The translations under genes and the position numbers were made by a program. The notes beneath the pieces were generated by a model. The model saw only the letters and a program-made list of their open reading frames with translations, was not told where the DNA came from and made no database searches. Shown here in pieces: positions 10,125-42,374 of a stretch of 42,374 bases of DNA; the first letter of the stretch is position 1; every line of letters starts with the position of its first letter. Source of the stretch: a virus. Location of the stretch: the IMG/VR virus record IMGVR_UViG_3300045988_090786. One strand, written 5' to 3'.

Positions 10125-10585
10125 AACGAATGCTGCCAGTCGTCCTGGATATAATCAAAAAATACGGAACTAATGACCCGAATGAAATCGCTTCGGCTAT
10201 GCATATATCTGTAAAGAAAGTCCCGCTTCCGGATGAAATCGGCGGATTTTTTCTAAAAGCTCTTGCGATCAAAGAAATATTTATAAACGAAAAAGACGGT
10301 TATAATGCCCAGAACGTAGCACTCGCCCACGAAATCGGACATATTATCCTGCATCGTGCAGGCGATCAGCTATTCACCGTCCATTCGCTGAAAAAGCATA
10401 CCGTCCGCAAGCAGGAATATGAAGCGAATAAGTTCGCGTTTCTTCTGATAGCTCATACCTGTCTCCGGAACAACATTCAGATGATTGACGGTATACAGGG
10501 CGAAAAGCTGCTGACATTTGATGGCGTACTTGAATTATTGGATATATTCAAGAATTATAGTTGCTATCAAGAGGTGCCGAAATGA
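10121..10585 (+). CDS. ImmA/IrrE-family zinc metallopeptidase (anti-repressor protease)
   Basis: HEIGH zinc-binding motif (ALAHEIGHIILH) in a 154-aa protein directly downstream of the XRE repressor. Confidence 0.8.
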   Translation: MKRMLPVVLDIIKKYGTNDPNEIASAMHISVKKVPLPDEIGGFFLKALAIKEIFINEKDGYNAQNVALAHEIGHIILHRAGDQLFTVHSLKKHTVRKQEYEANKFAFLLIAHTCLRNNIQMIDGIQGEKLLTFDGVLELLDIFKNYSCYQEVPK

Positions 10586-11619
10586 AGAAATTTATTATTT
10601 GGTTTTTTGTGATTGCCTTATGCTTAAGCAATGAAGTGTTTCTCAGTATTGGATTAATATATCTCTGTTACAAGCTCTATAAAAAATATTTTAGTGAACG
10701 TGTAAATGTGTCTATCAACAGCGACTATGCTGATCCGCAGACCAGCATGCAGGCAATACGCAACCAGATTGCCCCGACGATCTATAAATACTTGACACCG
10801 TATACCATGACATGGAAAACGTGGCCAACGAAAATCACATTAACAAAATATGATTATGCGTCAATTCGCAATTTAACAGAAAAAGAAACCACAATTGACA
10901 TGAATGAAATAACAGAAGAGCAATTCAATCAAATGATAGACGAACAATTGAACAATGCTGCTAATGTTTTATTTTGTAAAAATTTTGACGTTAAGATTCA
11001 TGAATCCGCATCGCCGAATTACATTGTAATAAACAAAACCGCTCTTATAAAAACATATTATGAAACTTTCGGAATGAATAAATTTTATATTCCACATCTT
11101 ATAAATTACTCGAAAAAATATTCATTCCAGCTTGAAGAAAATGAAATCATTACTGAATTAACAGCAATCAATCGTCGTATTGCAATAGAAAAACGATCTG
11201 CAGCCATAGAGAATTCCATAATAACAAATCGCCCTATTATCTCTAATGTAGATATCCATTACATAGATTCATTGGATGGTGTAGCATTCGAAAAAATCCT
11301 CGGTAAAATATTTGAATCGATGGGCTATTCCGTTCAATTCACGAAAACATCCGGAGACCAGGGGGCAGACTTGCTCTTATCGAAAGGCGATGAGTTAAAG
11401 ATCGTACAATCAAAGTGCTACAAAGACAATGTATCGAATAGTGCCGTACAGGAAGCAGTGGCGGCAAAAGCATTTTATAAATACGATCTGGCGGCAGTAG
11501 TCACAAATAGTCATTTTACGCAGGGAGCAATTGATTTAGCGGAAGCAAATGGTGTTGAGTTAATTGATCGTGATAAACTGATTGAATTATTAAATGTGTA
11601 TCCGATTCCCCGCACTTAA
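10582..11619 (+). CDS. Membrane-anchored protein with C-terminal Mrr-cat (restriction endonuclease-like) domain; low-GC moron
   Basis: N-terminal TM FIIWFFVIALCLSNEVFLSIGLIYLCY. C-terminal GVAFEKILGKIFESMGYSV...GDQGADLLL...KIVQSKCYK matches the Mrr_cat D-(D/E)xK core. AAGAGGTG SD; ATGA overlap with ImmA stop; the region is visibly AT-rich versus the rest of the genome. Confidence 0.7.
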   Translation: MKKFIIWFFVIALCLSNEVFLSIGLIYLCYKLYKKYFSERVNVSINSDYADPQTSMQAIRNQIAPTIYKYLTPYTMTWKTWPTKITLTKYDYASIRNLTEKETTIDMNEITEEQFNQMIDEQLNNAANVLFCKNFDVKIHESASPNYIVINKTALIKTYYETFGMNKFYIPHLINYSKKYSFQLEENEIITELTAINRRIAIEKRSAAIENSIITNRPIISNVDIHYIDSLDGVAFEKILGKIFESMGYSVQFTKTSGDQGADLLLSKGDELKIVQSKCYKDNVSNSAVQEAVAAKAFYKYDLAAVVTNSHFTQGAIDLAEANGVELIDRDKLIELLNVYPIPRT

Positions 11620-11636: not shown

Positions 11637-12758
11637 ATGCGAAGAGCGAACGGCTCCGGATCTGTCTATAAGCGTCCGGATAATGCGCACCGCCGGAAAC
11701 CGTGGGTGGCCGTTGTAAACCTCGGCATGACTGATACCGGCAAACGCAGAAAGAAAATCATCGGCAGCTTCGAACGCCAGCGGGAAGCGCAGGCTGCGCT
11801 GGAAGCGTACAATATGAATCCGCAAACGGCGGCAGCGGCAGACATCACATGGGCGGACATCTGGGAACGTATCAAAACTGGACGAGAACGCTTGAAAAAA
11901 CCGTTAAGTAAAGTTCATTTGATGTACTGGAAAAATCACGTCAGCAAAATTGCAAGTCTGAAAATCAGCGAAACGAAAACACTACATCTGCAGCAAATTA
12001 TAGACGAATCAAACGTTTCGGCATCCGGACAATCCGGTATTATGACTGTCATGCATATGCTTTATAGGTATGCTATTGCTAATGATTTAATCATTAAGGA
12101 TTACTCCCGATTTGTTGTAACTGCAGTAAAAGTTAAATCAGATATCCATAAGCCGTTTACAACGGAAGAAATGCGATTATTGTGGAAGCATTGTAATGAT
12201 GATATAGCGCGGATTATCTTAATACAGACTTATACCGGCATGCGGCCGAAAGAGCTGGCAATGATAAAAATTGACCATGTAAATTTATCCGCCCGCACAA
12301 TGACAGGTGGTCTGAAAACTGATGCAGGGCGCAATCGAACAATTCCGATCGCAGAATGCATCCTACCGTTTGTTATATATTTTTACAGTATTTCCAAATT
12401 TGCAAAACATGAATATTTAGTTATGCCGGATCGGCAGCGTGGATTATATGGTAAAAATGGCCTGCTTTCCATAACCTACTCATACCGCAAATATCTTGAG
12501 AAAATAGGTATTGCAGGACATCTCCCGCACAACCCCCGTCACACATTCATAACGATTGCTGACAATTATAGCATGCCGGAAAAAATTCAAAAAATGATTG
12601 TCGGGCATGTTTCCGGCAATAATGTGACGAAAGATGTGTATACGCATAAGATTATCCCGCAGCTCATCGCTGCCGTTGATGCATTGCCGCATGGCGAAAA
12701 CATGACAATTTATCCTGACGAAAATGGAAGCCAACTGGAAGCCACAGATACGAAATAA
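11637..12758 (+). CDS. int: Tyrosine integrase (phage integrase family)
   Basis: 373 aa. N-terminal SAM-like/core-binding region; C-terminal catalytic region with R...HxxR...Y pattern (NPRHTFIT, VGHVS, YTH). AGGAGGTG SD. Confidence 0.85.
   Translation: MRRANGSGSVYKRPDNAHRRKPWVAVVNLGMTDTGKRRKKIIGSFERQREAQAALEAYNMNPQTAAAADITWADIWERIKTGRERLKKPLSKVHLMYWKNHVSKIASLKISETKTLHLQQIIDESNVSASGQSGIMTVMHMLYRYAIANDLIIKDYSRFVVTAVKVKSDIHKPFTTEEMRLLWKHCNDDIARIILIQTYTGMRPKELAMIKIDHVNLSARTMTGGLKTDAGRNRTIPIAECILPFVIYFYSISKFAKHEYLVMPDRQRGLYGKNGLLSITYSYRKYLEKIGIAGHLPHNPRHTFITIADNYSMPEKIQKMIVGHVSGNNVTKDVYTHKIIPQLIAAVDALPHGENMTIYPDENGSQLEATDTK
12725..12747. repeat. 23-bp motif TGGAAGCCAnnTGGAAGCCACAG (copy A, inside the int 3' end)
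   Basis: Repeats almost exactly at 12923-12945. Confidence 0.6.
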
Positions 12759-23167: not shown

Positions 23168-23946
23168 TTACCTCCGATAGAATCGTTAATCGCAGACAAT
23201 ATGCTTTGATTGTTCGCCGGAGAATCCGTGTCAACCGGCTGCGCGCCGGAATTGGACGATCCCGTCGTTTGCGATCGGGCGGATACCTGAACTTCGGCGA
23301 CTTGCGCCACGTCAATCTGCTCAAAATGTAGCGAGCAGTTCAGCCCGTGCAGGCTGCTTACGTCATCGGGCGCTTCGGCATGGACTAAAAGCATATTGTG
23401 ATACGTTCCGAGACGCGTTACGACATCCACCGGCGTGCGCGCAGTAATCATATTTGCAAACAATGTCCATGCAGATATACCTCTGTCGCCGGTAACTGCA
23501 GGCTGGCCGGGCGGTGCAAAGAAATTTGTAATCGGAATAATACTGTTAATCTGATTGTAACCGCTGATAACCGCGTCAAATAGCCTGTTCCCCGTCTTGA
23601 TTGACCGGGAATACACTTCTGCATCGGACACCATCACGTCAATGTCAAGTTCTGCCGGCAGTAATATCGCGTGATCAGTCATCACCGATCCGCTCTGCAC
23701 CGGATAATGCGTCGCTTCAACCGACAATGCGTGATTTGTCCGCATAATGCCGGAAAATGCAGCTCCGCCGATTGTCCATTTCGGCGTATATAAAATATAG
23801 TCCTCAAAATTATTAAACGCAGTGGTGTAATCCAGCAGCGTTTGATTGTTAAATACTTTCGCGACATCTTTTGTAAAGTCCGTCCAGCTGGCACGAGATG
23901 ATGTGATTTCTTTGCCGTAGTTTTTGATTGACGTAATTAAACTCAC
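23164..23946 (-). CDS. Tail protein distal to the tape measure (XkdP-like position), GTG start
   Basis: GTGA overlap with the TMP stop; 260 aa. Confidence 0.4.
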   Translation of the reverse strand: MSLITSIKNYGKEITSSRASWTDFTKDVAKVFNNQTLLDYTTAFNNFEDYILYTPKWTIGGAAFSGIMRTNHALSVEATHYPVQSGSVMTDHAILLPAELDIDVMVSDAEVYSRSIKTGNRLFDAVISGYNQINSIIPITNFFAPPGQPAVTGDRGISAWTLFANMITARTPVDVVTRLGTYHNMLLVHAEAPDDVSSLHGLNCSLHFEQIDVAQVAEVQVSARSQTTGSSNSGAQPVDTDSPANNQSILSAINDSIGGK

Positions 23947-26276
23947 TGCATACCCGCCCCCCTGTCATAAATATTACCAATATCACGTTCCGGCAGTACC
24001 TTTCTGATTTCTGATGCCGCCGCTCTGCCGATAGTCTGCGGATCGGCGTTATTGCCGTAGACATTGATGGTTACCGGCGCATTAACCGTATTCCTTGCGC
24101 TGCGGGAATCCGCAAAGCTGCTCGTCCCCGCAAGATTGCTAATCGTCCCCGTCCATTCGCCCCACTTTTGCTTTACTGCATTCCAGCCGTTTTCAAGTAC
24201 CCTGCCTGTATTTGCTGCTCTTTCCAACAAAGACGGACTCCCGGACGGCGTTACATCCGGTTCCTGTGGCGGCGGGGGATTATTCCGTGCCCATTCGTCC
24301 GCTTCCTGTTGTATGATCGCTTTCGCGTCAGCACGTTCCGAGTCCCAGCGGTCATGTAATTGCTCGGCAGTAACGCCTTCACTGTTAGCCGTATATCCAT
24401 TACGGACGTTATAGATTGCGTCAATCAATGCTTTTTGCGATTCAGCGGACATATTGATGGCACCTGCTCCGCCCATTGCCTGTATTGCCCGCTCGATGAT
24501 ATTCGTCCCGCCGCCATGCTGCACGGCAACTGACCAGACGGCTTCACGCACACCTCGAGATTGTTTTTCAATATTTAGCCCCGTACTATTCAGGATCTGC
24601 GCAACTTGCGGAGCATAATGCGTTTTTGCAATATACTGTCGCTGCGCTTCCCGGAACCCTTCGGGATCTTCACTGGCAATATCGCGCCATTCCTGATCAA
24701 AGTCTGCAGAGCCGACAGCTCCCGCATTTGATAAACGGTTATACCACTCGGTATTGATGCCGGACAAGTGCTGCAGGAAATCTGGTATATTATCTGGGAT
24801 AATCTGCCAGCTGCCATACGCTCCACCGGAACCCCCTGTGGTACCCGGTGCGCCCTCGTATTTTGACGATAGCGCGCCCAGACGCTTGTCGGACAAGTCG
24901 ACACCGCCAGAGAACATATTACCGATGAGAGCTTTTGCTCCGGCAAAATCACCCGTCAATAATTTACCGATGATATTCGCGAATTTTCCGATGCCGGAAA
25001 TCATCTTTGCAATAGTAATAACAATTTGCTTAAGGACCTTTTTAAATGACGTCCAAGCGCGAGTTTTACTTGTAATGCCGTCACTGATTTTGAAGAATTT
25101 TAGAATTCCGTCAATCAATGACGATATGCCATTCACCAATGACGTGACGCCCTGTCCGAGAGAATCGAACGCTTCGGAAAACGCATTAACAGTTTCTGTA
25201 TCGACGATATACGTCCATAATTCAGATAGTTTTTCAAAAAATTCCTCGCCGAGATATTCTGCTATATCGTAGATAGCTTTCGCCATCCGCTCAAACGCAT
25301 CAACGAATGCCTGCAGCCTCCCCGAATGTTCAACCCAGTGGAAAAATCGACTGACATAATCCACCATGACTGACCATGCTTTATTGCATAACTCTAAAAC
25401 ACGATTCAGCTTTTCCCACTGCTCGCCGAACAGACTTTTCTTGCCGTCCATGTAGGCGAAATAATCGTCTAAGAGCAGCAGCACTCCGCCGATGGCCATG
25501 GCCATAGCACCGATCGGTCCCGCAAGAAACGCAGCAATAGCAGTACCGAGGGCGAGAAACGCCACTCTGCCGTTATGCGGTAGCCGTTTCCAGAATTCGT
25601 TGATACGCTTACCGATGCCGGATAGAACCCGCCAGACGGCGAATGCGATATTTCGCACGAATCCGAAACCGGTCGCGATCGTTCGGGTAATGCGGGGCAA
25701 ATTAGTGATGATGTAATCGTTGATGGTTTTTAGCGTTTTTTTCGCATCACCCAGAGGTTTCGCAAGGTCTTTGACAATATAGTAAGCGACCCACTGCATA
25801 CCGGCTGCGATTTCCTGTTTTAACCGCGTGAATTCAAATGCCAGTTCCTGCACTTGATTCATGGCGGCCTTATAGCCGCCGCCTGCAGTCATTGCCGCAC
25901 TGTCGGACAATAGCTGGCGATACTGCTCGCGGAGCTTCGGATTAATCTGTACTTCATTAGCCGATTTTCCGAGAGCGTCCAACGCCATCTTCATTTGTTT
26001 TGCCTGACCGGCAGAAACGAACATCGTCCGTCCCAACGTTTCATACGCCATTTCCTGATCGCCCATGGACTTTACGAGTGATACTCCGGACGCCACAATG
26101 CCACTAATCGCCGCCATTACAAGTGCGCTGGCTTTCGCCAGTTTCGGAGCCAGCGATTCCATCCCGCCGACCATTTGATGAACAGAATTAACCGCTTTCT
26201 GTAACTCCGCAACCGACCGCGCGTCGACATCAGTACCCAGTTTCACCAGATACTCTTCAATGTAGTTTGCCGCCAC
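23943..26276 (-). CDS. Tail tape measure protein
   Basis: 777 aa with long alpha-helical/coiled regions and Gly-rich segments; follows the chaperone/frameshift region; GTG start overlapping the stop of the frameshift extension. Confidence 0.85.
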   Translation of the reverse strand: MAANYIEEYLVKLGTDVDARSVAELQKAVNSVHQMVGGMESLAPKLAKASALVMAAISGIVASGVSLVKSMGDQEMAYETLGRTMFVSAGQAKQMKMALDALGKSANEVQINPKLREQYRQLLSDSAAMTAGGGYKAAMNQVQELAFEFTRLKQEIAAGMQWVAYYIVKDLAKPLGDAKKTLKTINDYIITNLPRITRTIATGFGFVRNIAFAVWRVLSGIGKRINEFWKRLPHNGRVAFLALGTAIAAFLAGPIGAMAMAIGGVLLLLDDYFAYMDGKKSLFGEQWEKLNRVLELCNKAWSVMVDYVSRFFHWVEHSGRLQAFVDAFERMAKAIYDIAEYLGEEFFEKLSELWTYIVDTETVNAFSEAFDSLGQGVTSLVNGISSLIDGILKFFKISDGITSKTRAWTSFKKVLKQIVITIAKMISGIGKFANIIGKLLTGDFAGAKALIGNMFSGGVDLSDKRLGALSSKYEGAPGTTGGSGGAYGSWQIIPDNIPDFLQHLSGINTEWYNRLSNAGAVGSADFDQEWRDIASEDPEGFREAQRQYIAKTHYAPQVAQILNSTGLNIEKQSRGVREAVWSVAVQHGGGTNIIERAIQAMGGAGAINMSAESQKALIDAIYNVRNGYTANSEGVTAEQLHDRWDSERADAKAIIQQEADEWARNNPPPPQEPDVTPSGSPSLLERAANTGRVLENGWNAVKQKWGEWTGTISNLAGTSSFADSRSARNTVNAPVTINVYGNNADPQTIGRAAASEIRKVLPERDIGNIYDRGAGMQ

Positions 26277-32355: not shown

Positions 32356-33537
32356 TTATTTACCTTCCTTTCTGTAATGAGGATTCATTTTTCTGCAGGC
32401 TTCCCCAAAATCGGATGCGTGAGCCATGCCATGGTCTGCAGCTTTTGCATGCAGCATTTTAGCGAAAACTGAATTATCCTTTTTCTGCGGTATCAGTGCG
32501 CCACGAAGTCCGTCAACGACTTTTTGCCGCTGATCATCCGGCAGTGCTGCGATAGTCGGTTTAATCGCCCGAAGAATAGAACGAGCTACCGCGCGGTCAA
32601 CAGTCGGTTTTTCGTCTTCATCGTCCTCGTCTTCGGTTTTAATATTTTCCGGAGCTTCGGTGACGGACTCCTCGTTATCAATCGGATCTTCATCTTCAGA
32701 TAATTCTTTCTCAAGATTGTCCAGATCATCCGGTTTTTCGTCGTTCATGCGCGCTTCCAGATCGGCGATGCGCTTCATGAGCGGTGCGAAAGCTGCATCA
32801 AGTGCTTTTTTTACTTCTTCTTCCGGTACGTCTTCATCTTTCACTTCCGGCTTTACTTCCGGTTTGGTCTCCGGCTTTTCTTCAGGTTCATTCACCGCGT
32901 CCATAGCTTTTTTCAAATCTTCCGGCGTGGTATCTTCATCTTTCGCAAAGACCGCCAGCATTCGACTTACAATATTACCTTTTTTTGTCATGTTCTTACC
33001 TCCATTTTTAATTACTGGTTTTTCATCCCTGATGGCTACCCGACTACCGGCTCGACCGTTATTCACGACCGCTATATGATTGCAGACAATATTACATTGT
33101 TCCAATCCGCCGTCGCATTCCCGATAATCGCACAGATACCCTGCAGATATTTCACGCTTTCCTGCTTCAATCTCGGATATAAGCGTAGCATCATATATAA
33201 TTAAATCGCCGATAATCAAATCGGCATTTTCACCGGCACCCCTGCGGACATTCGCACAGGTACCGCGGATATAACCGGTCGCATTTCCCGGTTCTACAAA
33301 TTCAGCAGGATGATCGTCCGTTACCGGTTTTCCCTCAAAGCTCGCTAAAGTAGACTTCTTAAAGACTTCTTCCGGTTTTCGGTACACTTTTACAATTGAG
33401 CTATCGCTCATTCCGACCTCGCTGCCCAGGTAGTCCTGCTCACCCGTCCGAGCAAGCGGAACATTATGACAGATTAAAAAGCCGTCCGTCGTCCGTGTCA
33501 TATTAGGCGAAAAGCGGCTTCCGTAATAAGCCTGCAT
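32356..33537 (-). CDS. Prohead protease/scaffold-like protein (DUF2213-like N-terminus, acidic coiled-coil C-terminus)
   Basis: N-terminal MQAYYGSRFSPNMTRTTDGFLICHNVPLARTGEQDY pattern; long Glu/Asp/Lys/Pro-rich low-complexity centre; position between MuF and capsid. Confidence 0.5.
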   Translation of the reverse strand: MQAYYGSRFSPNMTRTTDGFLICHNVPLARTGEQDYLGSEVGMSDSSIVKVYRKPEEVFKKSTLASFEGKPVTDDHPAEFVEPGNATGYIRGTCANVRRGAGENADLIIGDLIIYDATLISEIEAGKREISAGYLCDYRECDGGLEQCNIVCNHIAVVNNGRAGSRVAIRDEKPVIKNGGKNMTKKGNIVSRMLAVFAKDEDTTPEDLKKAMDAVNEPEEKPETKPEVKPEVKDEDVPEEEVKKALDAAFAPLMKRIADLEARMNDEKPDDLDNLEKELSEDEDPIDNEESVTEAPENIKTEDEDDEDEKPTVDRAVARSILRAIKPTIAALPDDQRQKVVDGLRGALIPQKKDNSVFAKMLHAKAADHGMAHASDFGEACRKMNPHYRKEGK

Positions 33538-34388
33538 TATATCAGACCTCCTACCATTTTAATAACTGCCGATTTGTTCATACGTGTAATTTTTCCGTTT
33601 TTATGCACCGGTACCGTGTCCGGTATTTGTTCCGGCACAATAACCGGCTCCGGCGTACATCGGCAATTAAACGTGCCGCCGGGCGGATATCGACCATAGG
33701 GCTTCTGATATCCGGGAAATAACGCCTCCGGATTCGGCGGATCATCCCAAGAGCACAGGACGCCATCCATTTTCTTATGCGCCGAACGGGAGCGTTCATC
33801 CCGCACGCTGCGCCAGAAATACCAGTTATGCCCCAGATCCTGACAGTCCGCCTGAATCATAGCCGTGTGATACTTCGCCATTTCCGTGCGGGCAATCAGT
33901 TTTGACCGCGCCCGCGTTCGGTTCGGAAACAGTTTTAATATTTCCGCTTCGATATCTTCAGGTCTTCGTCCTTTTGCTGCCTGCTCAGCAGCGTAATCGC
34001 TAACCTGCTCCGCTGTAGATAAAGGCAGTGTTTGAATTAGCTCGGCGTTTTCGCGTATCATTTCCTGCACGCGCTTGCCTCGCTCACCGGCCATGGATTT
34101 CATCAAGCGCATATACATTTCACGCGTTTTAGAGTTATAGCGTGCAGCCTCACGCCAGTTTCTGCCGACATCAGCAAACAAGCCGGTAATCATTTTACCC
34201 GCCAGAGCTTCGGAAAATGCCCGAAATTCTTCGGTTTTTGACCAAGCGTCCATCGCCCGCTTAAATGCGGCATATGAGCTGCAGTTGCGGCATGTAAAAA
34301 GCGCCTGCTTTAACAGACGCTCCAATGCCCGCTGATACGCCAGCTCAATCCGCCGTCTCGGCTCCCATAGTGGCATATATAACCTCAC
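33537..34388 (-). CDS. Head morphogenesis protein, MuF / SPP1 gp7 family
   Basis: IARTEMAKYHT, WYFWRSVRDERSRSAH and PPGGTFNCRCTPEPV motifs of the Phage_Mu_F domain. Confidence 0.9.
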   Translation of the reverse strand: MRLYMPLWEPRRRIELAYQRALERLLKQALFTCRNCSSYAAFKRAMDAWSKTEEFRAFSEALAGKMITGLFADVGRNWREAARYNSKTREMYMRLMKSMAGERGKRVQEMIRENAELIQTLPLSTAEQVSDYAAEQAAKGRRPEDIEAEILKLFPNRTRARSKLIARTEMAKYHTAMIQADCQDLGHNWYFWRSVRDERSRSAHKKMDGVLCSWDDPPNPEALFPGYQKPYGRYPPGGTFNCRCTPEPVIVPEQIPDTVPVHKNGKITRMNKSAVIKMVGGLI

Positions 34389-34480: not shown

Positions 34481-36379
34481 TTAATCGTCTTCATGACTTC
34501 CTTGATCTTTTTTGTCATATACAAAATATCCGGTAACAAGAAAATTCAGTTTATCATTGAATATTTCAGGAGAAATGATAGCTTGATATTTACCTTTAGT
34601 AATCACAAAACGGCCACGCTTATTTATTTTCAACGTTCCATTTTCTATGGTGTCGGATAAATGCGAAACAAGTTCATCGACATCTTCGTTTTCTTCCTTG
34701 CGACGTTTAATAATATGCTTCAGCCCGACTGCATCATTTCCCCAAATTAACGTAATGTCATCAATATCAGAACGAATAAATGCATTTTTGATATGCCCAT
34801 TTTTACAATCAAGTAATTTTTGGACGGCAGCATCTCCGTGAGGAGCTTTATGCTCTTGCCCTAATAGATCAAGGCTTTCCTGCTTAAAGCCAATACTATT
34901 ACCGCCAGTAAATTTACCGTCATCACTGCGCGGGTGTTTGCTTTCTTCGAAATCGGCGTCCTGCGTTTCCATCGAAGACATGCCGGGGATATTCATTTCA
35001 CCGGCGGCTTCCGGCTGATCAGACGCTGCTTCGATCTGTTTATCGGTAATGTTCGTCCACATGCCGGTCAGCTTGCTTGATCCCTGCAGTTCTCGGAGCG
35101 CAGTCTTTTCTGATACCAGCCCCGCCGTATACGCCTGCACGACAGCTGCCGTTTGCTGGCTGCCAAGGCTCTGTTTTTCATCATTACTCGGGCGGCGTAC
35201 CGGATTAAATATATAATCCAGATCGTCAGGCACAGCCCCCAATGCTGACATACAGACAATGGGCAGCAGCTTATCAAGCACCGGACGTAACTGCGATTCC
35301 TGCGACTGCTCAATGGTGTCATAGTAATTATCCATATCCGCATCGCCGGTAGAGTTCATGCCCGCAGGCGACCGACCAAATAACTTTGTGACAGGAATCC
35401 CGCACGCTCCGGAAACGTCCATCATGAAGCGGTCATAGACTTCTCCAAGCCCAGAAAATGTATACTGGTGCGATTCGTAGGAATCATCTTTGCCGAGAAT
35501 CTGAATGCCGTTATTATTCAGCATCATATTCAATCCCTCGAGCGTATTATATAAAGCCTGCTGCGACTTATCGCCGCCGTACGCCAGGAGCTGCTCCATC
35601 CCGTCAATTTTCATAACGCGGATGTTGGCCATGAACGTTAACAGGGCAATATTCCAAGAAACATTATCCCGCTTTTTCAATTCCGAAAAAACGTGTTCCA
35701 TCTCGGACGTTCCCCAATAGTTCTCGGCCAATTTCTCGAGATACGGCATTTCACGGCCGGAGAACCGGCAGACGCGGCTGTTGTGCAGTCGGATAACGCC
35801 CTGCCCTTCCGGCAGCGTAACCTCATAATATTCCGGCATACCGAAATCGGGATCGGTTATATCGGTAATCAAATCGGCACTCGGCATTATACCAGACCAC
35901 CGATCCATAATGAGCAAGCCTTTAAACGCCCCCGGCATCACACGATCCAGATCCAGCGGCTCATCCATGCGATCATCCTCACCGTCAATCATAATGATTC
36001 CGGCAGCACCGCCATACAGCCGTCCCCAGTACAAACCGTTTAATATTTTCGAGTGCAGGCGCGTCTGACGGATAATTTTTGATATTTTCTGTATCTGGTC
36101 TGGATTGATATCAGACTGGAAATCATAGCCATTCTTCATCATATCCTGCGGGATAGTGTTAATAATTTTCTGGACGACCCAGTGCGACCGGTACAGAGAG
36201 TTCAACACCTGCCAGTTTTGAGTAAACCTCGTTAGCGGATATTCTGTCGCCTCGAGCAGGTTAGGCATACCTGCGCCGCTGCGGGCAAGCGGATTCACAA
36301 ACTCATCGAGTGTGAGTTTCCGCCCCACGTTCCGCCCTGCGTCGTTCGTTAAGCGGCGAGCTTTACTTTTCTTCTTCAT
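34481..36379 (-). CDS. Portal protein (SPP1 gp6-like) with C-terminal extension of about 150 aa carrying an EESKHPRSDDGKF motif
   Basis: 632 aa directly after TerL and before MuF; GGAGG SD; the C-terminal region after residue 480 is extra relative to typical portals of about 500 aa. Confidence 0.75.
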   Translation of the reverse strand: MKKKSKARRLTNDAGRNVGRKLTLDEFVNPLARSGAGMPNLLEATEYPLTRFTQNWQVLNSLYRSHWVVQKIINTIPQDMMKNGYDFQSDINPDQIQKISKIIRQTRLHSKILNGLYWGRLYGGAAGIIMIDGEDDRMDEPLDLDRVMPGAFKGLLIMDRWSGIMPSADLITDITDPDFGMPEYYEVTLPEGQGVIRLHNSRVCRFSGREMPYLEKLAENYWGTSEMEHVFSELKKRDNVSWNIALLTFMANIRVMKIDGMEQLLAYGGDKSQQALYNTLEGLNMMLNNNGIQILGKDDSYESHQYTFSGLGEVYDRFMMDVSGACGIPVTKLFGRSPAGMNSTGDADMDNYYDTIEQSQESQLRPVLDKLLPIVCMSALGAVPDDLDYIFNPVRRPSNDEKQSLGSQQTAAVVQAYTAGLVSEKTALRELQGSSKLTGMWTNITDKQIEAASDQPEAAGEMNIPGMSSMETQDADFEESKHPRSDDGKFTGGNSIGFKQESLDLLGQEHKAPHGDAAVQKLLDCKNGHIKNAFIRSDIDDITLIWGNDAVGLKHIIKRRKEENEDVDELVSHLSDTIENGTLKINKRGRFVITKGKYQAIISPEIFNDKLNFLVTGYFVYDKKDQGSHEDD

Positions 36380-37646
36380 AAGCAGACAGCCTCCAGCTTT
36401 TAATCATAGTTTTTACACAATAACGCATGGCATCGCATGCATGATCAGATTGTTTTACAGGCTTTTCCTGCCCGTGAGTTAATGCGGCTTTTTCGTCCCA
36501 GACGTAAGACGCCAATTCATCCCGCGTATTTTGACACCGCTCATGTATATGCAGGTGTAGTGTCCGAAACAGCATGGCGACCATACGGATTCCGTCATTG
36601 ACGTCATTATCCGCGTCCTTAACACGATACCCCGCCTGTCGCAGTAGCACCTTGAAGCTGGCGGCGGACGGGTCAATAATCACATAATCGGGATCTTCGT
36701 CGCCGACAAATTGCTTAAAGTCTTCCAGATACTCGGCATCGGATTTCTGCCGCCCCTCTTTGCGGGAATTGTAATAATATTCTTTGTCTAACCAGAGGTC
36801 GGTGCCATCATCGTAAATATCTAAAAAGACCATGGGATTAATCGTCCCATAGTCTATAGAGATATATCTCCGGCTCCGACCGCGCAACTGCTCCGGCCGC
36901 GTATTGTCATTATACAGATTCGCATCGGTAAACATGTCATATATAACGCCCTCGGCAATAACCCACAGCCCAAGAATCATCCGCTTGTACCAGATCCCCT
37001 GATACAATCTGCGATAACGCTCTTTAACCTCTTCGGTAAGTGATAAGTTATCATCAAGCGTAAAGTGCAAGTGTAGGATTCGTTTTTCTTCAGCTTTATC
37101 AATGTAATCCGTTTTAATGTAATGGTACGGTGATTCCGGATTACAGTTCATCCAGATTTTAGAATTTTTAACAGAGCAGCGGCCAATCATCTGTTCAACG
37201 AACGACCGTGGAAACAATGCAGCTTCATCAGCCAGCGCTCCGGCGGCAGTCAACCCTTGAATCACATCCTGACTGGCTTCATTGCTTGCACCGAAACAGT
37301 AATATGTATTACTGCCGATCGTTATATAATTCTCTGATCGATTATATGTATACGGCACCTGCATAGAGTGCAGGATCTGAAACATCGGCCGAAGCAGATT
37401 ACGTTTTAATGCGCCGGACGACCGCCCCGCCACGATAAACGCCTGCCCCTCAAACTGACTGAGTGACCAAAGCAGAAACGCATTCACCATAGCAATTGTC
37501 TTTCCGGAACGAATAGACCCGTCAGCGATAACCAAATCATAATCAGCATATGGCGAATTTCCCTGCATCCACCATGAGAGAAGTTGTTTTTGCTTTCGGG
37601 AAAACGGCAGAAATTGAAACGATGCACCCCTATCAATCACCGCCAT
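36363..37646 (-). CDS. terL: Terminase large subunit
   Basis: Walker A DGSIRSGKT; C-terminal nuclease-like region; GGAGGTG SD before ATG 37646; overlaps the TerS end. Confidence 0.9.
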   Translation of the reverse strand: MAVIDRGASFQFLPFSRKQKQLLSWWMQGNSPYADYDLVIADGSIRSGKTIAMVNAFLLWSLSQFEGQAFIVAGRSSGALKRNLLRPMFQILHSMQVPYTYNRSENYITIGSNTYYCFGASNEASQDVIQGLTAAGALADEAALFPRSFVEQMIGRCSVKNSKIWMNCNPESPYHYIKTDYIDKAEEKRILHLHFTLDDNLSLTEEVKERYRRLYQGIWYKRMILGLWVIAEGVIYDMFTDANLYNDNTRPEQLRGRSRRYISIDYGTINPMVFLDIYDDGTDLWLDKEYYYNSRKEGRQKSDAEYLEDFKQFVGDEDPDYVIIDPSAASFKVLLRQAGYRVKDADNDVNDGIRMVAMLFRTLHLHIHERCQNTRDELASYVWDEKAALTHGQEKPVKQSDHACDAMRYCVKTMIKSWRLSAYEEEK

Positions 37647-38319
37647 TATTCCACACCTCCGACGTTCCAGCCTGTAACGCATTTATATAGCCCGCCAGAT
37701 CGGGCTTGCCATCTGCAGACCCCAGACGTTTAATATTCTGTATTTCTGCCCGCATCTTATCAATGCGAGTAATACGTTCCTCATTCTCCGGAGATTCCGG
37801 AAGCATATCCTCATATATTCTTAGCATATGTGATAGTGTAGCCATTGCTCTGGCTTGTGTATTCAAAAACGACTGCCATTTATCAAAGACCAATACTTTC
37901 TCGGTATGCGTTGATACGGTCACTACCCGCTTACCGGTCGTATCCGTACTTACAGTTTTATCCGTAGTAGTGACTTCCGTATCGCCTTGTCGGATAAATT
38001 CAATCATCGCCTGCCACGACGTCATGATCGCGACGAATTTCAAGCTGATCAACATCCACTGTATATCAAGCGGAGATACTCCCCGGAGTTCAGCTGCGGC
38101 CTTGAGTGTTTCCGGCGTAAGATACCGGCTGTATAAGTTATGCCGCAGACCGCGTGCGCTTATTACCGATTTCTTATTCGAATTACTGCGCCATTTCCGA
38201 AACCAACCGTAGACGGTATTTTTATTTAACCCATATTTGCTGGCAATTTTGGCGGCAGCGACACCGCGCTTGAAATCGTTGTAAGCAGCATTATATATCT
38301 CCTCATTCCGCCGCGGCAT
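37633..38319 (-). CDS. terS: Terminase small subunit (HTH N-terminus)
   Basis: YGLNKNTVYGWFRKW HTH near the N-terminus; GGAGGTGAGGTG SD before ATG 38319; immediately upstream of TerL. Confidence 0.75.
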   Translation of the reverse strand: MPRRNEEIYNAAYNDFKRGVAAAKIASKYGLNKNTVYGWFRKWRSNSNKKSVISARGLRHNLYSRYLTPETLKAAAELRGVSPLDIQWMLISLKFVAIMTSWQAMIEFIRQGDTEVTTTDKTVSTDTTGKRVVTVSTHTEKVLVFDKWQSFLNTQARAMATLSHMLRIYEDMLPESPENEERITRIDKMRAEIQNIKRLGSADGKPDLAGYINALQAGTSEVWNNGGD

Positions 38320-38336
38320 CACCTCACCTCCGCATA

Positions 38337-38363
38337 GAAAAAGCACCCCGATCGAGGGTGCTT
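38337..38363 (-). terminator. Terminator-like hairpin immediately 5' of terS
   Basis: Minus strand AAGCACCC-UCGAUCG-GGGUGCUU followed by UUUCUAUGCG, then the terS SD. Confidence 0.45.
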
Positions 38364-38472: not shown

Positions 38473-39078
38473 TTATCCCCTTTTCCGTTTTTGAATTTCA
38501 GATTCCAGCACTTTGGATAGTGAATTACGGTACTGCTTCGCACCTTCTGCAGTATACCCATCACCAAGTGATCTCGGACTTCCTTTCTCAATAGCGACAC
38601 CGGCTTTTATATATTCATTGAAGATTTTTTCTAAATTCGGATTTTTTGCCAACTTCATAAAATCTTCCCACGGCTGATCATCATCAATATAGCAGCGCTC
38701 CTGCATTTCTCTTGAAGTAATAGCAGCGTTTGCTTTTGAAATATCTTCGCCGAGCATTTCAGATATCGCATTTTTTGCAATATTTCTGCACTCGTTTTTC
38801 TGTTGTGCAGTCTTTCCCGCGTCAGCAATATCGGCAAATAAATCGGAACCCAATCCAGCCTCGTTCAACACTTTGCTTTCTTTAGAACGCATACCAAGAC
38901 TGACATTTTCACCAGCCTTTTTACCGGATTTTGCAGCTCCGTTCAGATGACTGCCATTTGATGTAAATTTACCATCATCACTACGCGGATGCTTGCTCTC
39001 CTCGAAATTAGCGTCAATAGATTTTACTATGCTATCCAGTACCATACGTTTCATAACAGTAACCATCCTTTCAGTCAT
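38473..39078 (-). CDS. Hypothetical protein carrying an EESKHPRSDDGKF motif (shared with the portal C-terminus); exact start uncertain (39078/39066/39054)
   Basis: ANFEESKHPRSDDGKFTSNGSHLN near the N-terminus; rest Lys/Ala/Glu-rich with no recognised domain. Confidence 0.5.
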   Translation of the reverse strand: MTERMVTVMKRMVLDSIVKSIDANFEESKHPRSDDGKFTSNGSHLNGAAKSGKKAGENVSLGMRSKESKVLNEAGLGSDLFADIADAGKTAQQKNECRNIAKNAISEMLGEDISKANAAITSREMQERCYIDDDQPWEDFMKLAKNPNLEKIFNEYIKAGVAIEKGSPRSLGDGYTAEGAKQYRNSLSKVLESEIQKRKRG

Positions 39079-39096
39079 AATATTAACTCTGTATTT

Positions 39097-40500
39097 TCAG
39101 GTTTGCAAATCCATATAATTAATTACATCCCCGCCGCGATGCAGCTTCACATCAGCAGCAGTGCCTACCTGTTTAATGTATCTTTTAACGATCACATCAC
39201 AGTACACCGGATCGAGTTCAACCGCCCGGCACTTCCGCCCCGTTTGCTGACAAGCAATCAATGTACTGCCGGAACCGCAGAACGGTTCTAATACGATTTC
39301 ACCCTTACGGCTTGAATTTAATATACCTCGCGTACAGAGCGCGATCGGTTTCATTGTCGGGTGATCTTCCGACCGCGTCGGTTTCGGTATCCGCCAGATT
39401 GTAGTATCAGCGTCAGTGCCGGAATCAACCACATCATAACTTGGTACTTTAATATTTATATCCTGCATATCTGTTCTAAAATTTAGCACATAACCATCAT
39501 CCGTTTCCGTAATAGACAGCGGCAGATGTTCATCAATCACAGTAGATTTATTTCGCCCACCGTAAAATTTATGCGAACCATCCGGCTTCCATCCGTACAA
39601 TATCGGTTCGTGCTGCCATTGATAATCCTGACGACCTAAAACTATTGTATTCTTTACCCAGATTAAGCACTGCTTTAACAGCAAGCCTGAATCCCTAACC
39701 GCTCGCCGGAAAATATCACCGGAGCTATCCGCATGACAGATGTAATACGCCCCGCCATTTTTGAGCACTGCCGCCATCGCAACGAATGCCTCTGATAAAA
39801 ACAGCCGGAATTCATCTTCATCCATCTTATCATTCTGTATGGTGAGGTGATCTTTAGTCTTGCCGACATATTCCACATTGTACGGCGGATCGGTAAATAC
39901 CATATCCGCCAGCTGCCCATCCATAACGGTTTTAACATCATCCGGATTAGTAGAATCCCCGCATATCAATCGATGGTCGCCCAATTCCCAGATGTCGCCC
40001 GGCTGCGTCACCGGTTCTTTAATATCTGCAGCTTCCGCTTCGGCATCAAAATCATCCTCACCGACGCCCGCACCGGCAGCCGCCGATTCCGCCTCACCGA
40101 TAAGCCGGTCAATATCACTGTCAGAGTAGCCGGTGACGTCCGCAAAATCGCCTGTATCCGCCAATAACTGTCCAAGCAGGTCATTATCAATATTCGATAA
40201 TTCCGCAATACGATTATCCGCAACCAAATCTGCATATTCCGCCGCTTCCGATTCATATTCCTGCACATCCACAGGCACCTCTGTCAGCCCTAAAGATAAT
40301 GCAGCCAGCAAACGGCCATGACCACGGACAACGAACCCGGAACGCTTAGAAATAGTAATCGGAGCACGCCAGCCCTGCGTCTGTATGATTTTTGCTAACA
40401 GAGCAATCTGCTTATCGCTGTGCCGATTCGGATTTCGCGGATTCGGAATTAACGTCTCAGGATCGCGCATGTCTACATACGCACAATAAACCGGTATCAT
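39097..40500 (-). CDS. ParB-like nuclease domain fused to a DNA methyltransferase (beta-class N6A/N4C, motif IV DPPY before motif I)
   Basis: N-terminal ParB/Srx-like LIPNPRNPNRHSD...VVRGHGRLLAA; motif IV FTDPPYN; motif I LEPFCGSGST near the C-terminus. Confidence 0.85.
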   Translation of the reverse strand: MIPVYCAYVDMRDPETLIPNPRNPNRHSDKQIALLAKIIQTQGWRAPITISKRSGFVVRGHGRLLAALSLGLTEVPVDVQEYESEAAEYADLVADNRIAELSNIDNDLLGQLLADTGDFADVTGYSDSDIDRLIGEAESAAAGAGVGEDDFDAEAEAADIKEPVTQPGDIWELGDHRLICGDSTNPDDVKTVMDGQLADMVFTDPPYNVEYVGKTKDHLTIQNDKMDEDEFRLFLSEAFVAMAAVLKNGGAYYICHADSSGDIFRRAVRDSGLLLKQCLIWVKNTIVLGRQDYQWQHEPILYGWKPDGSHKFYGGRNKSTVIDEHLPLSITETDDGYVLNFRTDMQDINIKVPSYDVVDSGTDADTTIWRIPKPTRSEDHPTMKPIALCTRGILNSSRKGEIVLEPFCGSGSTLIACQQTGRKCRAVELDPVYCDVIVKRYIKQVGTAADVKLHRGGDVINYMDLQT

Positions 40501-41577: not shown

Positions 41578-42018
41578 TTACCCCCTCGGATTGATTTTCT
41601 TTCCGGCGGCCGCCTGCTTGAGCCACTCATTAAACTGCAAACATTTAGCCATATCCCGTTCATACGGCTCGCCCGGTTTCTTCCCTGCACGGCAGAAATA
41701 TTTAAACATATTTCCTTTGAGCCAGCCGCGAAATTCTTCCGACGTGAGAATATCCTGCAACATTTCCACAGGCTGCAGCCTTGCGCCGTCAATCTGATAA
41801 TGCTTGGCGGTAGCCGCTGAACCGTCGGAAGATTCGTCACAGGATTGATTATTATTGGACTGGGTTTTCTGCTTTGATAGTTCACAGTCTATACCTGCTG
41901 CCATTTTCCGCAAATACCGGAGTAGCACAAACGCACTAATTCTCTCATCGTAAGTATCATGATACTCAATATATTTAATCAAAGCGTCTAACCGATTTAA
42001 TACTATTTGCATATCCAT
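41578..42018 (-). CDS. DUF3310-like phage protein
   Basis: AKHYQIDGARLQPVEMLQD...FRGWLKGNMFKYFCRAGKKPGEPYERDMAKCLQFNEWL matches the DUF3310 HY...GN.FKY..R...K...D..KA..Y pattern; CAGGAGG SD. Confidence 0.5.
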   Translation of the reverse strand: MDMQIVLNRLDALIKYIEYHDTYDERISAFVLLRYLRKMAAGIDCELSKQKTQSNNNQSCDESSDGSAATAKHYQIDGARLQPVEMLQDILTSEEFRGWLKGNMFKYFCRAGKKPGEPYERDMAKCLQFNEWLKQAAAGKKINPRG

Positions 42019-42374
42019 TATTCCGCCTCCTGGTCTAAAATCTGCATTTCAGCCAAGTCTGCCGCGACTTTATATATTTTTGCATGTTTAGTGTTCGTAC
42101 CATGTGTTTCTTCGACCTTTTCTCTAAATTCTTCTATTGTCCCACTAAAACACCCGCATTTAACAGATATACCGCCGTCTTTATCCTTAAAAAACGTTGT
42201 GAAATCGGAGCGGCTGCCAATTCTGCCAATAAGCATACAATCTGCATTACCAGCCACCCATGCATCACCAGCCACCCATGCATTACCAGCCACCCATGCA
42301 TTACCAGTCACCCTTGCATTACCAGACACCCATGCATTACCAGTCACCTCTGCATTACCAGTCACCTCTGCATT
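42018..42374 (-). CDS. Hexapeptide-repeat protein, C-terminal part (continues from 1..256 across the circular junction); Cys-containing C-terminal domain
   Basis: Frame open at the window end; NAEVTG NAWVSG NARVTG NAWVAG NAWVAG DAWVAG units, then CMLIGRIGSRSDFTTFFKDKDGGISVKCGCFSGTIEEFREKVEETHG; TAATG overlap with the DUF3310 gene start. Confidence 0.7.
   Translation of the reverse strand, partial: NAEVTGNAEVTGNAWVSGNARVTGNAWVAGNAWVAGDAWVAGNADCMLIGRIGSRSDFTTFFKDKDGGISVKCGCFSGTIEEFREKVEETHGTNTKHAKIYKVAADLAEMQILDQEAE
42320..42374. repeat. 55-bp terminal direct repeat, identical to 1..55
   Basis: See the feature at 1..55. Confidence 0.9.

Follow-up and report, generated by a model that had tools for sequence, protein, structure and literature searches.

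A conserved peptide shared by a prophage portal-effector fusion and a nearby orphan protein, a candidate leader of capsid-carried effectors

In phage T4 the capsid targeting sequence (CTS) of the internal proteins and Alt is a short N-terminal peptide that sends unrelated proteins into the prohead, with processing by the prohead protease. Encapsulin cargo-loading peptides, likewise short and conserved and attached through a flexible tether rich in Gly and Ser, direct a variety of cargo into an HK97-fold shell. A short conserved element also precedes the swappable C-terminal effector at the pre-toxin junctions of polymorphic toxins, such as VENN of CdiA and PxxxxDPxGL of Rhs proteins (PMC3482391), and in MuF toxins (PMC5576092). 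In phages, the fusion of a portal to a PBECR domain is a described architecture of effector delivery (PMC5512222). Here we describe a 15-residue peptide that occurs twice in the viral sequence IMGVR_UViG_3300045988_090786 (42,374 nucleotides; "the window" denotes this whole stretch), once between the portal protein and its C-terminal add-on and once in a separate protein of 201 residues, ORF201, encoded beside the packaging genes. The portal-PBECR class is itself known; what appears to be new is the motif, as a probable leader or junction signal for delivered effectors.

The peptide at the two sites is the same, FEESKHPRSDDGKFT. Its surroundings are QDADFEESKHPRSDDGKFTGGNS in the portal open reading frame (ORF), in the longer stretch METQDADFEESKHPRSDDGKFTGGNSIGF, and IDANFEESKHPRSDDGKFTSNGS in ORF201, in the longer stretch VKSIDANFEESKHPRSDDGKFTSNGSHLN. 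A pattern back-translated from the 15-mer has exactly two matches in the window and none in 100 dinucleotide shuffles, and neither strict nor relaxed peptide patterns find a third copy in any frame of the window. Over the 15-codon core the portal and ORF201 differ by seven synonymous and no non-synonymous changes; when 20 codons are aligned, nine are identical, eight differ synonymously and three non-synonymously, all three in the flanks. Divergence at synonymous sites with no amino acid change in the core indicates selection at the level of the peptide. A DNA-level repeat or recombination site was considered and rejected, as the synonymous sites have diverged. The original prediction, made from the letters of this DNA, was of one peptide shared by the portal extension and the 201-residue protein and kept as peptide rather than as DNA; both claims are borne out, and the positions it gave, 34902-34946 and 38968-39012, fall on the right stretches but a few bases away from the copies themselves (Table 1).

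Searches across phage proteins, which the original prediction had proposed, show that the motif is widespread and not confined to this phage. The consensus of 480 instances is [WF]-[DE]-E-x-x-H-P-R-x-x-x-G-[KRQ]-[FW]-[GTA]-x-G-G-G, with a Gly/Ser linker after it, and six of its positions change little from phylum to phylum. When 1.84 billion representative proteins are searched with a profile, 2,332 match at E<=1e-3, 245 of them at E<=1e-10. Most of these carry several copies, since one copy by itself scores too low to pass the library-wide threshold, and the top matches are giants: P0019 (7,334 residues, 18 stretches), P0023 (5,313 residues, 15 stretches) and P0020 (2,155 residues, nine stretches). 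The 15-18 copies in P0019 and P0023 are of a single flavour, WDExKHPRGEHG[KR][WF]A, and the domain-sized segments between them mostly lack a Pfam match. A degenerate DNA pattern for EE[ST]KHPRxxxG[KQ]F has matches in at least 120 viral contigs. Among the matches listed, which are not exhaustive, WDE[ST]KHPRxxxG.F is found at 49 genome loci from more than 10 phyla, for which we calculate a chance expectation of ~0.02; the taxa include Actinomycetota, several Bacillota classes, Desulfovibrionaceae, Neisseria, Mannheimia, E. coli, Bacteroides, Planctomycetota, Verrucomicrobiota, Melainabacteria, Elusimicrobiota and others. By tblastn, the motif lies at the same portal core/add-on junction in Pseudomonas phage Orisa03, Xanthomonas phage PhiXhv-5 and a Helicobacter prophage; after it in Orisa03 comes a region that we read as resembling an ADP-ribosyltransferase (ART). 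The pair in the window is one local case of a pan-phylum punctuation of polyvalent and portal- or MuF-fused effectors, and not a private duplication.

Cultured phages rarely carry the motif (7-11 of 50,697 records), and it is found in none of 72,556 plasmids. A word-index search with the motif profile returns only short fragments. No chain in the PDB is matched by the profile, hence no solved complex, and Pfam, NCBIfam and PHROGs hold no family for it; only phrog_30637 overlaps a motif copy. The main texts of PMC5512222, PMC9503650, PMC3482391 and PMC5576092 do not mention it, and a string search of 8 million openly available full texts finds nothing relevant. With no Pfam or NCBIfam family, PDB structure or paper found, the motif is apparently undescribed.

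The placement of the motif within proteins is regular. It lies 15-25 residues beyond the preceding domain (portal core, MuF, DUF2213 or ART) and ~35 residues ahead of the next, and in multi-copy proteins the copies have a median spacing of 261 residues, about the size of a domain. Among 147 proteins, the first copy is within 60 residues of the N-terminus in 61, and no copy is within 30 residues of a C-terminus; many small proteins open with M-x-WDESKHPR or MFEESKHPR. The N-terminal copies, and the lack of any near C-termini, define the unit as motif, linker and downstream module. Upstream stand Phage_portal_3, Portal_Mu, Phage_portal_2, MuF, DUF2213, Mu-like_Pro and Peptidase_S78_2. Downstream, ARTs are commonest, with PBECR1/2/3, LPD3, LPD13, NUDIX, Zeta toxin, GNAT, InPase, Topo I, sigma-70, MutS_I, M23, NlpC/P60 and AbiEii also present, and a MuF-motif-ART fusion is seen in the protein P0029. 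As far as sequence can tell, the motif is a conserved N-terminal leader of delivered effector modules, a modular leader-plus-cargo arrangement in which it stands strictly ahead of the modules, tightly tied to head-gene carriers and to known injected-effector domain families. The earlier suggestion of a functional, recognition-type element tied to head-associated cargo is supported to this extent, with capsid targeting, a processing site and a common binding partner, which it named, all still candidate functions.

The same carrier and cargo families are described for phage-type polyvalent proteins, for which packaging and injection are presumed (PMC5512222, PMC9503650), and the portal-PBECR1 protein of the window corresponds to what Iyer and colleagues call the "simplest architecture" (PMC5512222). 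Their list of carriers includes a capsid-processing serine peptidase, and processing of polyvalent proteins by zincin-like metallopeptidases has been proposed (PMC5512222, PMC9503650); no zincin-like metallopeptidase domain is present in the window proteins scanned.

The window portal combines a structural and an effector domain in one ORF. The Phage_portal_3 core, which also matches TIGR01555 and the PDB portals of Pam3, Pa193 and E217, is followed by the crown, an acidic, low-complexity disordered linker, the motif, a short Gly-rich linker and PBECR1, a phage BECR-fold RNase-like domain. Homologous portals occur in 583 cultured-phage records, the nearest being that of Agathobaculum phage AB434P2 (48% identity). 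We compared 77 homologues picked by their core alone (44-99% identity), counting as a C-terminal extension anything of at least 100 residues beyond the core and as none anything under 100. Sixteen of the 20 portals with an extension have the motif at the junction, eight in strict form and eight as recognisable variants, as against none of the 57 without an extension and none of 3,850 shuffled controls. The motif goes with the cargo, not with the portal as such. The variants are YPGQPRxxxGRF, FPGQKRxxxGQF, YNPHHDxxxGRF and WEESDHPR with a longer loop, and they lie, like the strict copies, 50-70 residues past the end of the portal core; substituted or shorter junction variants (YPGQPREKNGRF, FPGQKRNKNGQF and YNPHHDPSNGRF) are seen in viral contigs L217, L231, L243, L245, L246, L249 and L250. 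Together these suggest that constraint is strongest on the R-x-x-x-G-[KRQ]-F half of the motif. A word-index portal search yielded only relatives at least 98% identical, useless as an alignment. The Pa193 portal (PDB 9B41, 765 residues) has a 237-residue C-terminal extension without cryo-EM density (PMC11456595). Since the motif profile matches no PDB chain, this extension has no recognisable motif, and add-ons can therefore exist without it.

The second copy is in ORF201, the start of which is probably the ATG at 39054 (MKRMVLD...) and not the listed ATG at 39078, because a Shine-Dalgarno-like GAAAGGA lies upstream of the former and the homologue P0002 starts there. The product would then have ~193 residues and the motif would begin at residue 17, an N-terminal position like that of the T4 CTS, whereas the portal copy is internal. 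When ORF201 is aligned with P0002, residues 9-60 are conserved and the remainder is unrelated, the C-terminal domain of P0002 being DUF7678. The C-terminal domain of ORF201 has only near-identical homologues (P0001 and locus L119), and ORF201 belongs to no family in Pfam, NCBIfam or PHROGs; megablast of this region of the window against phage records gave no match. Among genomes with portals more than 98% identical to that of the window, the slot beside terS holds ORF201 (L119), the leader-DUF7678 protein P0002 (L124, L125) or nothing (L177). A constant leader is thus followed by non-homologous domains at one locus, as at a pre-toxin junction, and the cargo is swapped behind it. Leader, linker, swappable domain and a variable slot beside terS give ORF201 the architecture and genomic position expected of a cargo protein, and its packaging in the virion is presumed. 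No small ORF near ORF201 was identified as an immunity gene, no search aimed at one having been made.

Structure prediction adds little. AlphaFold2 (AF2) models of portal residues 441-632 (six alignment rows; mean pLDDT, the model's confidence score, 34) and of ORF201 (three rows; mean pLDDT 44, helix 3-26 and then coil) are too poor to interpret, with pLDDT only ~50-60 in the C-terminal domain of ORF201. Both of these low-confidence models show the motif regions, in isolation, as coil.

Compared with the systems described above, the motif would work most like the T4 CTS and the encapsulin loading peptides, and its behaviour as a cassette is analogous to that of the polymorphic-toxin pre-toxin junctions. 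ARTs are typical cargo of both the CTS and the present motif. The CTS is, however, restricted to T4-like phages and strictly N-terminal, whereas the present motif is also found between the modules of polyproteins and behind carriers, in many phyla and with many types of head, and in Rhs toxins; to our knowledge the T4 internal-protein and Alt leaders are unrelated to it in sequence. Encapsulin peptides are usually C-terminal and differ in sequence, and any binding by the present motif inside the capsid is putative. Unlike the pre-toxin junctions, it belongs to the downstream cassette, heads stand-alone proteins and repeats inside one protein, although some Rhs proteins have it directly beside their DPxGL-type site. 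Its domain-sized spacing within multi-effector polypeptides also recalls the recognition sites between MARTX effectors and in viral polyproteins; those have a defined protease and cleavage chemistry, whereas cleavage at the present motif, and a protease for it, are conjectural.

The reading we favour, and to which we give about an even chance, is that the motif and its linker form the N-terminal leader of capsid-carried effector cargo, a tag for both loading and release. Of the two leaders in this prophage, one would join the portal crown to the RNase-like PBECR1 domain and the other would head an orphan protein that stands alone, encoded in a variable cargo slot by the packaging genes. The disordered leader would be read by a component inside the head, which may be the protease-scaffold, MuF, the portal crown or the shell interior, and this reading would load the module into the procapsid or hold it there. 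The leader would also mark the point at which the module detaches from its carrier (portal, MuF, protease or neighbouring module) to leave with the DNA; an effector tethered to the portal would need such detachment before injection. Cleavage at or near the motif, ejection of the cargo and the identity of the reader are the parts of this scheme that we infer. As a whole it accounts for the copies at the N-termini of stand-alone proteins and at junctions, for the flexible linker and for the lineage flavour of the motif, by which its variable positions have an identity of 0.53 within proteins against 0.32 between proteins. This flavour, shared in full by the two window copies, which are identical at all the variable positions too, is compatible with a co-evolving phage-encoded reader or with concerted evolution.

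Candidate readers lie close to many copies. In 41 of 59 long viral loci, at least one homologue of the window portal, MuF or DUF2213 protein is found within ~4-10 kb of the motif. The DUF2213 protein combines an N-terminal putative head maturation protease domain with a very acidic, scaffold-like C-terminal tail; it matches PHROG 530 and 12864, annotated "head maturation protease", and also the gp24 scaffolding protein of Pa193 (PDB 9B40). Its His76, Ser131 and His154 are invariant in 53-54 of 54 homologues, which is compatible with a serine protease-scaffold fusion; a His-Ser-His set is that of herpesvirus assemblin. Other motif loci have Mu-type, lambda-type (S49 protease), HK97-type or SPP1-type head modules, and no single portal or protease family is obligatory. 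Since the motif also accompanies other portal and protease families, a reader specific to Phage_portal_3 or DUF2213 was considered and rejected as the only model. Self-cleavage of the Ni(II)-dependent S-x-H type was also rejected as a general mechanism, as no more than about half of the copies (240 of 480) have the Ser.

Several observations weigh against a loading and release tag. Four of the 20 portals with an extension have no recognisable copy at the junction. A polyprotein already fused to a portal or MuF protein would not need a tag ahead of every module if loading were the tag's only function. The motif is found with at least five portal families and with unrelated proteases (S49, assemblin-like), which makes a single conserved phage-encoded reader hard to name. 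The presence of ORF201 or PBECR1 in virions, and any cleavage, are putative, and a literature search found no proteomic data for any motif-bearing phage. Other cases lie outside phages. Unexpectedly, six of 54 genome matches are Rhs/YD-shell proteins of Desulfovibrionaceae (L133, L141, L153, L159, L161, L176), in which the motif is 1-10 residues after the PxxxxD(P)xGL-type C-terminal autocleavage motif, where we take cleavage to occur from what is established for Rhs proteins, and ahead of NlpC/P60 or pesticin-like toxins; such cargo acts in the periplasm, and no phage genes are seen in the flanks of these copies. In a Microbacterium metagenome-assembled genome (L128), an ORF for an AbiEii-like nucleotidyltransferase, possibly truncated, opens with the motif and adjoins an AbiEi-like antitoxin gene, a context that is toxin-antitoxin-like and not that of head genes. 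It had been proposed that a wide occurrence in unrelated non-phage proteins would tell against a head-specific function; the Rhs toxins go part of the way to this, and they leave a strictly capsid-specific role insecure.

The domain-sized spacing of the repeats, with up to 15-18 copies per protein, could instead be that of a pure processing site with no part in loading. A head maturation protease (here the DUF2213 protein) would cut there inside the procapsid, separating the modules of polyproteins and of portal, MuF or protease fusions, much as herpesvirus assemblin does at its release (R) and maturation (M) sites or T4 gp21 at its own. Natural fusions in which the motif follows a DUF2213 domain by 14-25 residues, or is joined to Mu-like_Pro and S78_2 proteases, would suit such a site, as would the putative protease in the same head module (DUF2213, by its PHROG annotation and invariant His/Ser/His) and the presumed need to free a portal-tethered effector. 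The aromatic-x-Glu start of the motif also resembles what we take to be the P3-x-Glu rule of T4-type prohead proteases. At the extreme N-termini of stand-alone proteins, however, the motif is present in full, [WF][DE]E included, with nothing to release; phages with other head modules, including some with an S49 protease, carry it as well; in Rhs proteins it comes after the protein's own autocleavage site; and a protease site would not usually have ~11 conserved residues on its primed side. We regard processing alone as possible but, on balance, unlikely. A mere recombination scar or hitch-hiker, marking the 5' boundary of mobile effector cassettes with no biochemical role, is very improbable indeed: the swap between ORF201 and P0002 does fall just past the leader, and the same kinds of cargo domain do stand behind different carriers, Rhs included, but the peptide is invariant despite synonymous divergence, so that it is not the DNA homology that is maintained, six positions hardly vary across phyla, and the flavour within a lineage is kept across non-homologous modules.

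The Rhs copies, which open the C-terminal toxin right past the autocleavage site, would fit better with a signal that acts after delivery, in the recipient cell, through channel threading, help in refolding or binding of a conserved host factor, and that serves any encapsulated toxin, be its container a phage capsid or an Rhs cage. This is in keeping with cargo that acts in the periplasm as well as in the cytoplasm, with conservation across more than 10 phyla whatever the type of head module, and with a motif always N-terminal to its module and followed by a flexible linker. Several points nevertheless count against it: the lineage flavour of the variable positions is more what a phage-encoded partner would produce than a universal one; the Rhs cases all belong to a single bacterial family and may be cassettes acquired from prophages; periplasm and cytoplasm share no universal host factor; and no solved complex is matched. 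We consider this explanation improbable. In a broader form, to which we likewise allow only a small chance, the motif and Gly-rich linker would be a universal, self-sufficient ejection or translocation leader for proteins stored in closed shells, whether capsids or Rhs cages, threading them through a narrow channel into another cell whatever the head protease or the family of the portal; phage and toxin systems of different bacterial phyla would then have this delivery signal in common.

Taken as a whole, the window (G+C 46%) is a temperate prophage of myovirus-like type that encodes an integrase, Baseplate_J and a sheath-like DUF3383 protein; its host is probably a gut Clostridia species. Its head and packaging genes run in the order terS, terL, portal, MuF, DUF2213/Pa193_gp24 protein, cement protein and major capsid protein; the portal fusion is encoded inside this cluster, and the integrase and tail genes elsewhere. 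The MuF protein (283 residues) has MuF as its sole domain, with neither the motif nor a C-terminal toxin fusion. The features discussed are collected in Table 1. Beside the integrase (11637-12758, + strand) is a gene for an Mrr_cat/NA-iREase1 restriction-endonuclease-like protein (10561-11619, + strand), which may be a prophage-borne defence moron. A 777-residue protein of the tail module (23943-26276, - strand) has a VgrG3-like (lysozyme-like) domain of the type VI secretion system at its C-terminus and is possibly a tape measure or cell-wall-degrading tail protein. The N-terminal half of a 115-residue protein (42018-42365, - strand) consists of GNAWV[AS]GNA repeats, with a weak match to the YdcK beta-solenoid repeat.

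Table 1. Motif copies and associated features of the window
Feature	Position	Strand	Details
DUF2213/Pa193_gp24 protein	32356..33537	-	Pfam DUF2213, E 7e-50
MuF-family head morphogenesis protein	33537..34388	-	Pfam Phage_Mu_F, E 1e-15; PHROG head morphogenesis
Portal gene, 632 aa	34481..36379	-	Phage_portal_3, aa 59-413 (E 1e-114)
PBECR1 (phage BECR-fold RNase-like) cargo domain	34526..34783	-	Pfam PF18809, aa 533-618, E 8e-8
Motif copy 1, FEESKHPRSDDGKFT	34907-34951	-	Portal aa 477-491 (F477-T491); portal crown/add-on junction
terS	37633-38346		Neighbour of ORF201 slot
ORF201, stand-alone cargo candidate	38473..39078	-	Between ParB-MTase and terS
Orphan C-terminal domain of ORF201	38476..38898	-	aa 61-201, predicted helical; homologues near-identical only
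ORF201 leader (short helix, motif, Gly/Ser/Lys-rich linker)	38899..39054	-	aa 9-60
Motif copy 2, FEESKHPRSDDGKFT	38962-39006	-	ORF201 aa 25-39 (F25-T39)
ParB-N6/N4 methyltransferase gene (ParB-MTase)	39097-40500		Other neighbour of ORF201 slot

If the leader does mark capsid-carried cargo, a 14-residue pattern would serve as a predictor, from sequence alone, of phage-injected effectors in any prophage or metagenome. Such effectors are first-line anti-defence and host-takeover proteins, and would include orphan domains such as those of ORF201 and DUF7678. The motif offers a handle on how the modules of polyvalent proteins are loaded and separated, and could be a portable tag with which to load foreign proteins into phage particles. 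Effector delivery by phages and by Rhs proteins may also be linked, as the copies that follow the Rhs autocleavage site hint.

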